23,499 nucleotides of DNA from Candidatus Zixiibacteriota bacterium (GTDB lineage: Bacteria > Zixibacteria > MSB-5A5 > GN15 > JAAZOE01): assembly GCA_043819555.1 (NCBI GenBank), contig JBDREQ010000037.1, positions 1-23,499 on the forward strand, read 5' to 3'. Every line of letters starts with the position of its first letter. Within the stretch, counting starts at the first letter, position 1. Positions 13,007 through 16,971 of the stretch are shown piece after piece. The translations under genes and the position numbers were made by a program. The notes under the pieces are model-generated. The model did no database searches and was not told the origin of the DNA. It saw nothing but the letters and a program-made list of their open reading frames with translations.

Positions 13007-13457
13007 CTTCGAGAACGAAGGTAACCGGACCGTCATTGATAATCTCCACTTCCATTTTAGCCCCGAAACTCCCGGTTTCGACTTTTAATCCTGAGTTCGC
13101 CAGGAGCTCAACGAATCTTTGATACATTTTCCTTGCCTCTTCCGGCGGCATAGTTCCGGTAAAGCTGGGTCGGCGCCCCTTGTGTGTATCACCGTATAAA
13201 GTAAATTGCGAAATTACAAGAAACTCGCCTTCAATATCAAGGATTGATTTATTCATTCTTCCTAAATCATCTTCAAAAACCCGCAACTCACTTACCTTTT
13301 TTGCCAGCCGCGCTGCCGATTCGGTTTGGTCTCCGATTTTCAATCCCAATAGTATTACAAAACCGCGCTTGATCCGCCCCTTTTCAAATCCCTGCGGATG
13401 TTCCTCATCGAAAACCGTCACCGAGGCTCGGCCTACTCGCTGAATCACCAATCTCAT
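12993..13457 (-). CDS. dtd: D-aminoacyl-tRNA deacylase
   Basis: MR.VIQRV..ASV, SQFTL, KGRRPSF, FGA.M.V and NDGPVT motifs. Confidence 0.97.
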   Translation of the reverse strand: MRLVIQRVGRASVTVFDEEHPQGFEKGRIKRGFVILLGLKIGDQTESAARLAKKVSELRVFEDDLGRMNKSILDIEGEFLVISQFTLYGDTHKGRRPSFTGTMPPEEARKMYQRFVELLANSGLKVETGSFGAKMEVEIINDGPVTFVLEDDMH

Positions 13458-13466
13458 AATAGCACG

Positions 13467-13495
13467 AAGGTAGGCTATTGGATATTATCTGTCAA
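13467..13495 (-). promoter_or_regulatory. Sigma70 promoter for the dtd-maf-rodZ-smc-ftsY operon
   Basis: Minus strand TTGACA (13495-13490)-N17-TACCTT (13472-13467), ending 9 nt before the dtd ATG. Confidence 0.6.
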
Positions 13496-13502
13496 CTTGT
13501 GA

Positions 13503-13562
13503 TTTTACAGGCATTAAATAAAATCGGTATTGCGATTTACTGATTTTTATTCCCCTGTAAAA
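13503..13562. repeat. 60-bp imperfect inverted repeat in the divergent dtd/trxA intergenic region
   Basis: Outer arms ttttacagg / cctgtaaaa (perfect 9 bp). Inner arms aataaaatcggta / tactgatttttatt. Confidence 0.65.
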
Positions 13563-13637
13563 GTTTTATGATTGCGCCGCGTCGATTTAGTTATTTATTT
13601 TAATTTCCACAAGAGCTGAAAGATATTGTTTAACCCG

Positions 13638-13663
13638 GGAACAGACTGGTAATCCGTTTGTTA
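13638..13663 (+). promoter_or_regulatory. Possible ECF-sigma promoter upstream of trxA
   Basis: GGAAC (13638-13642)-N17-GTTA (13660-13663), 40 nt upstream of the trxA ATG. Confidence 0.35.
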
Positions 13664-13702
13664 AATGGTTTGAAATAACATAGAAAAAAGTAAGGAGGAA
13701 AT

Positions 13703-14026
13703 ATGTCTCAACCTGTTCATGTAACCGATGCCTCATTCGAAACCGAAGTTAAAAATTCTGATATTCCGGTGCTGGTCGATTTTTGGGCTGCCTGGTGCGG
13801 CCCCTGCAAAATGATTGCTCCGATTTTGGACGAATTGGCCGGCGAGTACGACGGTAAAATAAAAATCGCGAAAATTGACGTCGATTCGAACCCAAAGACT
13901 CCGGCTTCGTTTTCAATTATGTCGATACCGGCTCTGCTTTTTTTCAAAAACGGACAAGTCGTCGAATCAGTTATCGGGGCCGTACCGAAGGCGCAGTTAG
14001 TATCAAAAATTGATAAAGTCCTTTAA
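13703..14026 (+). CDS. trxA: Thioredoxin
   Basis: 107 aa, [17 protein letters not shown], cis-Pro motif SIP, strong TAAGGAGG SD. Confidence 0.98.
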
Positions 14027-14043
14027 CATAGGAAATTTTGAGC

Positions 14044-14481
14044 ATGAAAGATTCATCTCAAAGTGTTAATTGGGAAAATCCGAGCGCTGAAGAAATCAGA
14101 GATATTTTGACATCATCAAGAACGATCGCCGTTGTCGGATTATCTCCCAAACCGGAAAGGCCATCTTATGGAGTTGCCAATTATCTAATGGGTATGGGTT
14201 ACAGCGTTATACCGGTCAACCCTCGCGAAATAGAAATAATGGGGTGTAAATCATATCCGGATCTTACGGCGATTGGCAAAAAAGTAGATATTGTCGATGT
14301 TTTCCGGCGGGGGGAGGCAACTCCCCCGATAGTGGAAGAAGCCATAAAGACCGGGGCGGGCTGTATCTGGTTTCAGGAGGGAGTTATTTCCGAGGAATCT
14401 TATAAGCTGGCGAAAGATGCAGGGGTTACCATTGTTATGGATAGGTGTATTTTGAAAGAACATCAACTAATGGGAATCTAA
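14044..14481 (+). CDS. CoA-binding protein (YccU/CoA_binding_2 family)
   Basis: TIAVVGLS.KP.RPS..VA.YL...GY.VIPVNP, VDIVDVFR, WFQEG and VMDRC motifs. Start is ATG 14044 or TTG 14038. Confidence 0.92.
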   Translation: MKDSSQSVNWENPSAEEIRDILTSSRTIAVVGLSPKPERPSYGVANYLMGMGYSVIPVNPREIEIMGCKSYPDLTAIGKKVDIVDVFRRGEATPPIVEEAIKTGAGCIWFQEGVISEESYKLAKDAGVTIVMDRCILKEHQLMGI

Positions 14482-14482
14482 G

Positions 14483-14653
14483 ATGGATTTTACACAAGTA
14501 CTTCTTGTCGCAATTTTTATTGTGGTCTGGTTGGTTTTGGTCAAGTATGTTTTCCCCAAATTTGGAGTACCTACCTGACACATCCCTGCCGGTCATGATA
14601 AGACGGCATCGGTTCCGGAGGAGCCGAAAGAAAACAAATCGCTACCCGAATAA
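14483..14653 (+). CDS. Unannotated single-pass membrane microprotein; 31 aa to TGA, or 56 aa if TGA 14576-14578 is read as selenocysteine
   Basis: GGGA SD 7 nt upstream; ATG 1 nt after the upstream stop. Translation is MDFTQVLLVAIFIVVWLVLVKYVFPKFGVPT-(TGA)-HIPAGHDKTASVPEEPKENKSLPE-TAA. There is a clear hydrophobic helix, and hairpins follow the TGA. Confidence 0.7.
14587..14627 (+). promoter_or_regulatory. Candidate bacterial SECIS: two tandem stem-loops 3' of the in-frame TGA
   Basis: Hairpin 1 is tgcc-g-gtc-[atgataa]-gac-ggca (14587-14608), with its loop starting 16 nt after the TGA. Hairpin 2 is tcggttcc-[gga]-ggagccga (14609-14627). Confidence 0.5.
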
Positions 14654-14740
14654 AAAATTGATTCTTAAACAAATTCCTTAATTATACGGCATTGGCGTCA
14701 TTAAGTATCATTAAGTTAATTGCCGATAATAAGATAGATT

Positions 14741-15580
14741 ATGAGAGCATACGGAAACAAACCCGGATTTGGGAATATTCGTTTTGGCCCACAGCGAGGA
14801 TTATCGCGCGGAGTCAAAATCCTGCTCATTACGAATGTAGCTATCTACATTCTACAGATGCTGATAGGCCGGGAAATGATAATTCTACTGGGATTAACGC
14901 CGGTTCGGGTTCTGCAGGATTTATCATTTTATCAACTTTTTACCTATATGTTTTTGCACGGCGGATTTTTTCATATTCTGATGAATATGTTTATTCTCTG
15001 GATGTTCGGAACCGAAATTGAACTGACCTGGGGTACGAAAAGATTTTATAAATATTATTTCCTGTGCGGTATTGCCGGTGGAATTTTCACGGTAATGTTT
15101 ATGCCCAATTCCTCGATACCAACTATCGGAGCTTCCGGAGCTATCTACGGTCTTCTGGTTGCCTATGCCGTCATGTTTCCCAATCGTTTAATTTATTTGT
15201 ATTTTCTAATACCTGTAAAAGTTAAATGGGCGGTCATTGCTTTTGTTGGTCTTGAGTTTTTGGCGTCCTTTGACGCAACTTCCAGCGGCGTTGGCCATTT
15301 GGCTCATTTAGGCGGCGCGGTTATAGGATTTATTTATCTTAAACTTGACTGGCGCGTCGGGAATTTGTTTTATAAATTATCACCGAAGCGATTTTTGGCT
15401 AATTCGAGATTTAAGCGCAATTATCGTAAGTTAAATAAAAACCGGGAAAAAACCGAAGAAATAATGAAGAAAGTTGACCAAATTCTCGATAAAATTAATG
15501 AAGTAGGGATTGAAAACATATCGGAAGGGGAACGCCGATTCCTTGATAATGCCAGTGACCTTTTATCTAAAAAGGAATAA
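14741..15580 (+). CDS. Rhomboid family intramembrane serine protease with C-terminal DUF6576-like helical tail
   Basis: TYMFLHGG..HI..NM..LW.FG..IE, catalytic GASG and AHLGG motifs. Tail VDQILDKINEVG..NIS..ERRFL. Confidence 0.94.
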   Translation: MRAYGNKPGFGNIRFGPQRGLSRGVKILLITNVAIYILQMLIGREMIILLGLTPVRVLQDLSFYQLFTYMFLHGGFFHILMNMFILWMFGTEIELTWGTKRFYKYYFLCGIAGGIFTVMFMPNSSIPTIGASGAIYGLLVAYAVMFPNRLIYLYFLIPVKVKWAVIAFVGLEFLASFDATSSGVGHLAHLGGAVIGFIYLKLDWRVGNLFYKLSPKRFLANSRFKRNYRKLNKNREKTEEIMKKVDQILDKINEVGIENISEGERRFLDNASDLLSKKE

Positions 15581-15588
15581 CGCTGTTT

Positions 15589-16971
15589 ATGTCAAAGATA
15601 GTCCTTATAATTGAACCGTCGATAGCCGTCCGGGGCATAGCCGAGTCGCTGCTCCGGCAAGGCGGGCTGAATGTAATTTCAGTAGATACAGTTGAAGACG
15701 CCAAACAGATTTTGCAGGATAGTAAGATTGCGTTAATTTTGGTTTCTTCCGAAGTCTATGACGGTCAGGGGCAGCCCTTTTATGAGGTGGTTGGTTCAAT
15801 TCCGGGAGGTAATTCCGTACCCCTTTTGGTGCTGCATGATGCCTCGAGTGGACAAACTATTAATTTCCCCCAGGAAGTCATTATTAACAAGCCTTTCACT
15901 CCTCGTGAATTTATGTCTTCCGTAGCGGCTTTTACCGGCCAAAATACGCAAATCCCGGGACAGACTCCATTTGACGGAAATGATATCGAAGATGATATAA
16001 TCGACACCGCTTTGGGAATTGATAAAATAGAGGTTGATGGATCCGAGGTGATTGGTGGCGATACTGGCGTTTATCGGCTGCATAATAAGAGAAACGCCAA
16101 AGAATCAATGGTCGGTTATGATTACAAGGAACCGGTGGACGACCGTGCTATTGCTGCAAAAAAGAATGATAGCGCGAAAGTTCCGGAAATTAACGTTCGA
16201 CAACAACAAAAGACTAACCAGGCGCCTGAACAAAAAAAACAATTGGATGAAAAACCGATGGAGATATCCGAAGAAAACGGCGAATTCCTTGGAGCCGATA
16301 GCGCGAAACTTAGGCAGGCTTCCGCCAATCAACTTACTGAATCAAGTAAAATAGAAATTATTAGCGATCAATTCGGGATCATGTCTCCCGATGAACCTCT
16401 GGAAACCGACAGCGATGACCATGATTATGGCTGGTTTATAAATGAATTGAAAAAGGATGGCCGGGACGAACCAAAGGCGATTTCCGATGATAGTGGATCG
16501 CTTGAAGTCTCGAAAATGGAAGAATCTCTGAATCCGTCGGCACCTGCGCCGGCATCTCAACCCCCCCGGATTCAGTCGATTCCCGTCGAGTCGAACCCTG
16601 CCACTCATAAAGCATTTCAACCGAAAATAAAAAAGGAAATTCCCGGAAGTTCTCAAAGTCAGGCAATTGAAAAGTTTATTTCCGAATTTAAAAAAGAGAT
16701 GGAGAAGATATCTGTCGACGATGAACTGCATATTCAGGAAGCAAATATTCCTCCTCAGGATTCTGAATCCGATAAATCTCAGGATAATTTTCAATGGGAT
16801 GAAAACCTGGAAGACTTGCCTGAGCCAGAATTAAAAAACCTTTCCCACGAACTTATAAAAGCGATTTCGAGGCAGGTGGCAAGCAAAATGGTTGCCCTGT
16901 TGGATGAAGAAAGAATTTATCAATTGTTTAAAGAAGCTATTGCCGATTTCATAAGGCAAAAGGGTAAATAA
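15589..16971 (+). CDS. Atypical (pseudo-)receiver domain protein with long acidic low-complexity linker and C-terminal helical region; RomR-like architecture
   Basis: N-terminal CheY-like pattern (KIVLIIEP...LILVSS...PLLVL...KPF) with Ser at the phosphoacceptor position, about 290 aa D/E/Q/P/S-rich linker, an amphipathic helical C-terminus, and no DNA-binding domain recognised. Confidence 0.75.
   Translation: MSKIVLIIEPSIAVRGIAESLLRQGGLNVISVDTVEDAKQILQDSKIALILVSSEVYDGQGQPFYEVVGSIPGGNSVPLLVLHDASSGQTINFPQEVIINKPFTPREFMSSVAAFTGQNTQIPGQTPFDGNDIEDDIIDTALGIDKIEVDGSEVIGGDTGVYRLHNKRNAKESMVGYDYKEPVDDRAIAAKKNDSAKVPEINVRQQQKTNQAPEQKKQLDEKPMEISEENGEFLGADSAKLRQASANQLTESSKIEIISDQFGIMSPDEPLETDSDDHDYGWFINELKKDGRDEPKAISDDSGSLEVSKMEESLNPSAPAPASQPPRIQSIPVESNPATHKAFQPKIKKEIPGSSQSQAIEKFISEFKKEMEKISVDDELHIQEANIPPQDSESDKSQDNFQWDENLEDLPEPELKNLSHELIKAISRQVASKMVALLDEERIYQLFKEAIADFIRQKGK

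Follow-up and report, generated by a model that had tools for sequence, protein, structure and literature searches.

The stretch of DNA analysed here, in the following called the window, comprises 23,499 nucleotides (nt) of a Candidatus Zixiibacteriota genome (contig JBDREQ010000037.1 of assembly GCA_043819555.1) and contains, at 14483-14653 on the plus strand, an open reading frame (ORF) that is absent from the annotation track. It encodes a hydrophobic peptide of 31 amino acids (MDFTQVLLVAIFIVVWLVLVKYVFPKFGVPT), which is followed by an in-frame TGA and by 24 further open codons (HIPAGHDKTASVPEEPKENKSLPE) ending with TAA at 14651-14653. Its ATG at 14483 stands one base beyond the stop codon (TAA, 14479-14481) of a CoA_binding_2 gene. 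An earlier reading of the same letters, the original prediction, had proposed a hidden gene for a 56-residue protein with the TGA read as selenocysteine (Sec, U) just past a transmembrane helix. Its description of the locus was borne out by the sequence, namely the unlisted ORF with its coordinates, the GGGA Shine-Dalgarno motif, the TGA at 14576-14578 and the 24-codon open frame, and also the GC-rich composition up to the TAA: the G+C fraction is 0.48-0.52 across 14550-14639 and 0.28-0.35 across 14640-14759, i.e. about 0.5 up to about 14640 and about 0.3 from there on. On the strength of the comparisons presented below, we consider it probable (roughly 0.85) that 14483-14653 (+) is indeed a gene and encodes a selenoprotein of 56 residues in which UGA is read as Sec. 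The features on which this reading draws are the following.

14472-14475, plus strand: GGGA, a Shine-Dalgarno-like motif read from the sequence, 7 nt 5' of the microprotein ATG
14483-14653, plus strand: candidate selenoprotein gene, 56 codons plus TAA, with Sec as codon 32 (translation with TGA as U)
14498-14554, plus strand: single predicted transmembrane helix, residues 6-24, VLLVAIFIVVWLVLVKYVF, the most hydrophobic 19-residue stretch
14576-14578, plus strand: in-frame TGA, proposed selenocysteine codon U32 (conserved TGA; Cys in homologues)
14587-14608, plus strand: hairpin 1, 7 pairs with a bulged G and the 7-nt loop AUGAUAA (RNAfold)
14591-14593, plus strand: codon 37, GGT (Gly), the position of Cys in most relatives (U-x4-C), from sequence comparison
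14609-14627, plus strand: hairpin 2, 8 pairs UCGGUUCC/GGAGCCGA with a GGA triloop at 14617-14619 (RNAfold and hairpin scan), proposed core of the selenocysteine insertion sequence (SECIS)

A six-frame search with the 56-residue reading recovered the gene across the order, each time with one in-frame TGA. At E <= 0.001, a profile of 30 orthologues (alignment A1, in which the starts of seven loci were shifted to a conserved Met) gave matches in 151 of the phylum's 285 genomes, the best with E = 2.7e-23. The TGA lay inside 148 of the 150 phylum matches listed; the alignments of the remaining two, G104 and G121, ended earlier, at position 28, and both were found to carry the TGA on inspection. Altogether 95 loci were fetched, 55 of them returned by the search and 40 chosen (other families, low scorers, plus G104 and G121), and these correspond to 78 distinct sequences. 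The same gene layout was present in all 78. Codon 32 is TGA in every one of them and follows ...G(V/I)xT or ...GGGG, whereas the final stops of the same 78 ORFs, which serve as an internal control, are TAA in 34, TGA in 26 and TAG in 18 cases. Invariant residues in A1 are M1, L19, P25, G28 and U32.

Conservation does not end at the TGA. Profile matches extend through it to model positions 48-56 in most genomes, and in 77 of the 78 loci the frame past it runs on without a stop for at least 15 codons. A Cys residue follows U at U+5 in 47 loci, at U+6 in eight and at another place within eight residues in four, and is encoded by TGC (30) and TGT (29) about equally often. The window copy reads UHIPAG, with Gly37 at U+5; a relative from the same genus has UHTPAC. 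The far tail of the microprotein is poorly conserved (A1), and mean column identity is 62% for the 31-residue part (A5) and 37% over the whole protein (A1). A TGA conserved at position 32 and coding-like conservation beyond it were what the original prediction had named as support, and the invariant TGA, the open frame and the U+5 Cys kept through synonymous TGC/TGT codons in 47 of the 78 loci provide both. Some matches were set aside. The weak one in G273, a 100% complete genome with no selA, lies within a stop-free ORF of 270 amino acids and is probably false. A contig scan with the single protein gave four loci, of which L051 and L054 are unrelated, one being another membrane protein and one containing no ORF.

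The original prediction had also cited short hypothetical proteins ending in ...P(K/R)(L/F)G(V/I)xT and relatives that continue with Cys, and both are indeed present in databases, the short ones with the ending ...P(K/R)xG(V/I)xT. A word-indexed protein search returned 31-residue short forms, named 'hypothetical protein' at most, together with two 60-residue entries with Trp (W) at the site, while an exhaustive profile search yielded 553 database proteins at E <= 0.001. Homologues were tallied on 169 aligned database proteins, including the best 150 of these 553. Of the 169, 52 end just ahead of the Sec site and 117 span it. The residue at the Sec site is Cys in 94 of the spanning homologues, Trp in 17 and Gly, Ser or Arg in two each. 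Cys is found at +5 in 111 of the 117, and 90 of the 94 Cys forms contain C-x4-C. Their consensus reads ...LPxxG(V/I)PTCMSGxC..., with T29, C30 and C35 invariant in 52 Cys forms (A3). Homologues ending with TAA or TAG at this position, none of them with Cys, had been named in advance as a refutation; what the databases show instead is Cys in the large majority of the homologues that span the site. The comparisons point to an unnamed family of single-pass microproteins with (U/C)-x4-C right after the helix, with Sec forms in this phylum and Cys forms elsewhere. Searches of Pfam and NCBIfam 20.0 with hmmscan gave no family for the 56-residue form, the 31-residue form or nine Cys forms; no score came near a curated cut-off, the best being that of F0F1 subunit B, with 10.5 bits against a cut-off of 156. 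The nearest protein Atlas cluster to the Cys homologue P0029 is likewise unnamed (0.88) and is commonest in Planctomycetota.

A few database entries deserve separate mention. In some public gene calls the TGA of the family is read as Trp (17 entries) or Gly (2), for example in P0002, P0003, P0027, P0056 and P0098, presumably because a code with TGA as a sense codon was applied to short metagenome contigs. The Ser (two entries) and Arg (two entries) at the Sec site may be real substitutions. P0049 is a fusion of the microprotein with thioredoxin and matches a Pfam or NCBIfam family solely via its thioredoxin part. The top scorer of the exhaustive search, P0026, is a repetitive protein of 986 residues whose 11 matches all fall on a short segment, …KLGVPSCAVGPAQ…; as it does not look like a relative, it was excluded from the tally.

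The original prediction had further described, behind the TGA, a bulged hairpin starting 8 nt after it with its loop 16 nt away and a second hairpin with a GGA loop. RNAfold confirmed both (hairpins 1 and 2). The element common to all other families is hairpin 2, whose loop starts +38 nt from the UGA in the window. Across the 78 loci, a GC-rich hairpin occurs at a constant loop distance from the UGA, which is +23 nt for three of the families, +21 for a further one and +38 for that of the window (12 sequences). Its stem differs between loci (CUCUUCC/GGAAGAG, GUCUCCC/GGGAGAC, CAAUCUCC/GGAGAUUG and CCGUUCC/GGAACGG are examples), and the apical loops are GGA, GGC, GUC, GGU or GUG, with AGUU or CGGGA in some loci. 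We analysed the 66 sequences outside the window's family in a MAFFT alignment (A2) and the 12 of the window's family apart (A4). In A2 the 8-pair helix was 73.4% paired, compared with 56.6 +/- 1.3 in shuffles. Two-sided changes occurred in all eight pairs, the four middle ones each accounting for 16-24 such cells, and covariation amounted to 0.393 versus 0.153 +/- 0.014 in shuffles, a value reached by 0 of 500 shuffles, and to at most 0.245 with the partners slid. As tetraloop sequences are out of register in A2, this covariation count is conservative. In the window's family hairpin 2 was 83.3% paired, with a covariation of 0.203 versus 0.113 in shuffles (0 of 500 reach it). The covariation analysis proposed in the original prediction came out in its favour in both alignments. 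A hairpin of at least five pairs with a tri- or tetraloop beginning with G was found past 34 of 525 ordinary TGA stops, as opposed to 44 of the 78 family loci.

In the window's family, five additional codons separate the Cys position from the conserved hairpin, and in most of the 12 members these fold into a hairpin of their own, hairpin 1, with varied stem sequences. Since the register of hairpin 1 differs between sequences, its covariation is not countable on fixed columns. Hairpin 1 is a lineage-specific insertion of five codons, so that either of the two hairpins may act as the SECIS in the window. Of the idea that SECIS-like hairpins follow the TGA, the part that stands is a downstream hairpin kept with compensatory changes; the shared element is the second hairpin, and the first one belongs to a single lineage. 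Rfam gave no match to the region beyond a chance-level hit to SAM-II (14.5 bits, gathering score 44). An intrinsic (Rho-independent) terminator was considered and rejected: the hairpin is followed by an A-rich stretch with no U-tract, as the original prediction had remarked, and 0 terminator-like sites were found in 13400-15200.

The genome has the means to decode UGA as Sec. The assembly containing the window (as contig C37) measures 3.35 Mb, is 97% complete and has a G+C content of 43.6%. Absence of selA, selB or selC had been listed as evidence against a selenoprotein, and searches found selA (485.7 bits), selB (322.4 bits), selD (389.4 bits) and the tRNA-Sec (74.3 bits), all above curated cut-offs, with selA and selB adjoining each other on contig C33. 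The selD gene (G000:C63:76059-76982, minus strand) itself encodes a selenoprotein, with an in-frame TGA at the known Sec site (…VSGAGU-ASK…) and a hairpin of seven pairs with a GGC triloop 20 nt past the UGA. A gene of the AhpC/TSA family (peroxiredoxin-like; G000:C21:51740-52105, minus strand) also contains an in-frame TGA (…NNTPGU-NRQ…), with a hairpin of five pairs whose loop starts 19 nt past its UGA. A search of the genome for FdhA gave nothing above cut-off, hence no further SECIS was available for comparison. Otherwise TGA is a normal stop codon in this genome: ATG-initiated ORFs of at least 200 amino acids end genome-wide with TAA in 52.7%, TGA in 26.2% and TAG in 21.1% of cases. In the phylum, selA was detected in 264 of 285 genomes (193 of 198 if only those of high quality are counted), and the whole clade appears to use selenocysteine.

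Residues 6-24 of the microprotein have a mean Kyte-Doolittle hydropathy of 2.89. AlphaFold2, run on the Cys homologue P0029 with alignment A3, predicted one helix (residues 2-24) with a predicted local distance difference test (pLDDT) score of about 91 and a disordered tail with pLDDT 54-72. The mean net charge in the 78 sequences is -0.97 at residues 1-6 and +1.63 at residues 20-31. From this charge layout and the positive-inside rule we infer that the tail is cytoplasmic (N-out, C-in), the orientation already suggested in the original prediction by Lys21 and Lys26.

The genes adjoining the microprotein gene in the window lie on the same strand.

13703-14026, plus strand: thioredoxin gene, the conserved upstream neighbour (PF00085, E = 5e-35; TIGR01068, 132 bits)
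14038-14481, plus strand: CoA_binding_2 gene directly upstream (PF13380, E = 5.9e-40)
14741-15580, plus strand: rhomboid-family gene directly downstream (PF01694, E = 2.4e-34)

Within the order, the genes form a tight same-strand row of thioredoxin, (CoA_binding_2), the microprotein, rhomboid and a response-regulator-like gene. Of the 78 Sec-form loci searched with tblastn, 61 have thioredoxin upstream on the same strand, and in 37 CoA_binding_2 is placed between it and the microprotein gene; on the downstream side, rhomboid was found in 48 and the response-regulator-like gene in 43. A Pfam test of the same-strand ORFs of at least 80 amino acids at 30 loci, one of which (L030) had no such ORF, placed rhomboid downstream in 28. 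In the rhomboid proteins of 27 orthologous loci (A6), S132 and H189 are invariant; they correspond to the catalytic serine of GASG and the histidine of AHLxHLGG. The rhomboid also possesses a conserved charged C-terminal extension, with a match to DUF6576 in many of these 27 proteins. The ORF that follows rhomboid in the window (15589-16971, plus strand) encodes 460 amino acids; the N-termini of its orthologues match Response_reg weakly in many loci, and the remainder is long, acidic and of low complexity. Other lineages are arranged differently. In one family, thioredoxin and CoA_binding_2 precede the microprotein gene, and OsmC follows it in two of two loci tested. In another family of the class (loci L099-L108), an acyl-CoA dehydrogenase gene lies directly upstream in thioredoxin's place in all seven loci tested; in most members of that family the tail has no U+5 Cys.

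Among the Cys forms, thioredoxin was encoded upstream in 18 of 80 metagenome loci. By Pfam, 70 same-strand ORFs flanking Cys forms comprised six for thioredoxin, four for DsbD_TM (two of them fused to thioredoxin), five for rhodanese (three with metallo-beta-lactamase), five for YgaP-like_TM, five for DUF302, three for Usp, two each for TauE and zf-HC2, and one for Pyr_redox_2; no rhomboid was among these 70. The thread common to the neighbours is thiol, sulfur and oxidative-stress chemistry together with thioredoxin, the link to rhomboid being lineage-specific.

The locus could be read in other ways. An ORF that is short, off the annotation track and without a match to a protein family might be a chance open frame in an intergenic spacer and no gene at all. 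The conservation data refute this: the profile reaches E = 2.7e-23, with matches in 151 of 285 genomes and to 553 database proteins at E <= 0.001, M1, L19, P25, G28 and U32 do not vary, and the place in the operon is conserved, so that we give the idea virtually no weight. The main rival takes the TGA as an ordinary stop, the product as a 31-residue membrane peptide and the hairpin as a regulatory RNA which might, for example, tune translation or stability of the rhomboid message. It can draw on the 31-residue form deposited as 'hypothetical protein' in public collections, on a hairpin that is conserved as RNA between two genes of one operon, and on the distance of 38 nt between the UGA and the GGA loop of the window. 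However, a true stop should vary. All 78 loci have TGA as codon 32, whereas the in-frame stops that come next are TAA in 34, TGA in 26 and TAG in 18. Moreover, 94 of 117 homologues have Cys in its place and continue in frame with the same x4-C motif, and the U+5 Cys is maintained by synonymous TGC/TGT changes. A role of the hairpin in the rhomboid message is opposed by the persistence of tail and hairpin where no rhomboid gene follows (30 of the 78 Sec-form loci and all Cys forms tested). An invariant TGA beside a variable terminator, together with the Cys forms, makes this rival hard to hold, and we regard it as very unlikely.

Insertion of Sec in bacteria competes with release factor 2, and some termination at the UGA is to be expected. 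One might therefore suppose that both products are made and that the UGA acts as a selenium-dependent switch, yielding a 31-residue anchor if selenium or SelB is in short supply and otherwise the 56-residue form, with different roles for the two. The 31-residue part is in fact the best conserved one (62% in A5 against 37% for the whole protein in A1). Yet nothing in the data requires a separate role for the short form, and the Cys forms, which cannot make it, have the same architecture; we see only a very slight chance for such a switch. The reading of the locus as a selenoprotein gene follows from the conserved in-frame TGA, coding across it, the Sec/Cys pair, the conserved stem-loop and the Sec machinery. 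With these, the features by which a bacterial selenoprotein gene is usually recognized in silico are all in place, the stem-loop at the level of the family and with borderline geometry in the window, and none of the three findings that the original prediction listed as refuting it turned up. Its proposal of a 56-residue protein with Sec32 just past the transmembrane helix is supported. Conservation of the gene, the Sec/Cys pair, the hairpin and the machinery are observations; the insertion of Sec would be their most probable explanation.

Several observations nevertheless weigh against the selenoprotein reading or its details. The open frame downstream of the TGA is weak evidence when taken alone, because in 57 of the 78 loci frame +1 likewise has no stop for at least 15 codons. 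The near-universal presence of selA in the phylum makes its co-occurrence with the microprotein gene non-discriminating, and seven genomes with the microprotein gene, with a completeness of 81-93%, gave no selA match. No Cys occurs within eight residues past U in 20 of the 78 loci, the window copy included, and a selenylsulfide cannot therefore be the general mechanism. The fold of 14570-14670 in the window is not unusually stable (RNAfold, z = -1.06; 22 of 200 shuffles equal it), and the evidence that the hairpins exceed chance comes from the relatives and not from the window sequence alone. The loops of most bacterial SECIS elements lie 16-37 nt from the UGA according to excerpts of a 2026 review (PMC13188914), and the GGA loop of the window's family at +38 falls just outside this range, whereas the loop of hairpin 1, at a canonical distance, lacks a G at both its first and its second position. 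The SECIS geometry of the window itself, at +38 or at +16 with the AUGAUAA loop, is consequently borderline; the family as a whole fits. The gene neighbourhoods vary by lineage, with the acyl-CoA dehydrogenase in seven of seven loci of one family and no rhomboid beside the Cys forms, which renders the functional inference loose. A search of sequencing runs listed no RNA run, one DNA run contained 0.11 of the words, and proteome data did not turn up either.

If UGA 14576-14578 is decoded as Sec, this would be accomplished by the SelB and tRNA-Sec of the genome and directed by the stem-loops of the coding region (14587-14627), whose conserved core is a GC-rich hairpin with a G-first triloop. The resulting protein would begin outside with a short acidic stretch, cross the membrane once (residues 6-24) and end in a flexible cytoplasmic tail that starts with ...FPKFGVPT-U32. 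In most members, the selenol and the Cys five residues on could form, on the cytoplasmic side of the membrane, a redox-active selenylsulfide, which might be recycled by the thioredoxin encoded upstream and serve thiol, persulfide or peroxide chemistry near the membrane. Members that have no U+5 Cys, among them the window copy, would need an outside thiol. Insertion of Sec and the topology, redox cycling and coupling to thioredoxin built upon it are what we infer here, and a function as a membrane-tethered selenylsulfide recycled by the upstream thioredoxin, for thiol, persulfide or peroxide chemistry, is offered tentatively and at odds that we judge to be somewhat worse than even.

Should Sec insertion be confirmed, the prokaryotic list, which is dominated by thioredoxin-fold and enzyme families, would gain a selenoprotein family of a different nature that is encoded in roughly half the genomes of a phylum and has Cys relatives in other lineages. 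The case illustrates that gene callers systematically cut or skip such genes, with 52 of 169 entries ending at the TGA and 17 reading it as Trp. A gene of 171 nt with a conserved hairpin of 19 nt and a SECIS displaced by an inserted hairpin would also make a compact natural system for the study of Sec insertion in bacteria. The genes that recur nearby (thioredoxin, DsbD/CcdA, persulfide dioxygenase-rhodanese, TauE, OsmC) suggest a so far unstudied thiol or sulfur function close to the membrane, which should be testable with the Cys forms in tractable bacteria.

Among known proteins, the microprotein resembles YohP-type small bacterial membrane proteins (<50 amino acids) in size, in its single helix and in being easily missed by gene callers; as described in listings and abstracts, those have no redox motif and no recoded stop. 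A closer architectural parallel is found in the eukaryotic proteins SELENOS and SELENOK, which, in the excerpted text of PMC13524514, combine one membrane anchor with a disordered cytosolic segment carrying Sec, an arrangement indicated here by hydropathy and by the AlphaFold2 model of the Cys homologue. According to the same excerpts, SELENOS forms a selenylsulfide loop between Sec and Cys and has as partner derlin-1, a protein of the rhomboid family; a rhomboid gene lies downstream of the microprotein gene in 48 of the 78 loci. However, there is no sequence relation to SELENOS or SELENOK, and no Pfam family was obtained for the window protein at E <= 10. Sec32 of 56 directly follows the helix, has 24 residues between it and the C-terminus and is four spacer residues away from the Cys position, whereas Sec is penultimate in SELENOS and its loop has 15 residues. 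The neighbouring rhomboid, unlike derlins, retains Ser and His of the catalytic site. The two systems are thus alike solely in architecture. By analogy, the locus might represent a bacterial counterpart of the SELENOS/SELENOK-derlin system, in which the microprotein, with its disordered redox tail, would serve the downstream rhomboid protease as substrate, adaptor or redox gate in the surveillance of membrane proteins and be recycled by thioredoxin, and in which an inserted spacer hairpin that folds on itself would have shifted the conserved SECIS loop by 15 nt; we think that this is unlikely.

The closest parallel in decoding is with bacterial genes that carry the SECIS inside the ORF, such as E. 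coli fdhF, described by the bSECIS model of Zhang and Gladyshev as cited in the excerpts of PMC13188914. An in-frame UGA, a stem-loop just downstream and an early G in a small loop are shared with them, as are the loop distance of 21-23 nt in most members, within the 16-37 nt given there, the Sec/Cys pair and the presence of selA, selB, selC and selD. In contrast to fdhF-type selenoproteins, the microprotein is a single-pass membrane peptide of 56 residues with no globular fold, its motif is U-x4-C in place of the usual UxxC or CxxU, and the conserved loop of the window's family is situated at +38 behind an inserted extra hairpin. Table 1 of the 2026 review lists 119 prokaryotic selenoprotein families and subfamilies, and nearly all of this table (PMC13188914) contains neither a single-pass membrane microprotein nor a Ux4C motif. 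A description of the family was not found in the literature searched, including passages of the deep-Sep paper (PMC12013277); candidates from groundwater metagenome-assembled genomes (Deng et al. 2026) could overlap with it. The signs by which the 119 families were discovered are the ones encountered here: database entries that stop short, a TGA that is conserved, homologues with Cys, and a SECIS. Taken together, the sequence comparisons suggest a family in neither Pfam nor NCBIfam that is new, with a decoding of the known bacterial type.

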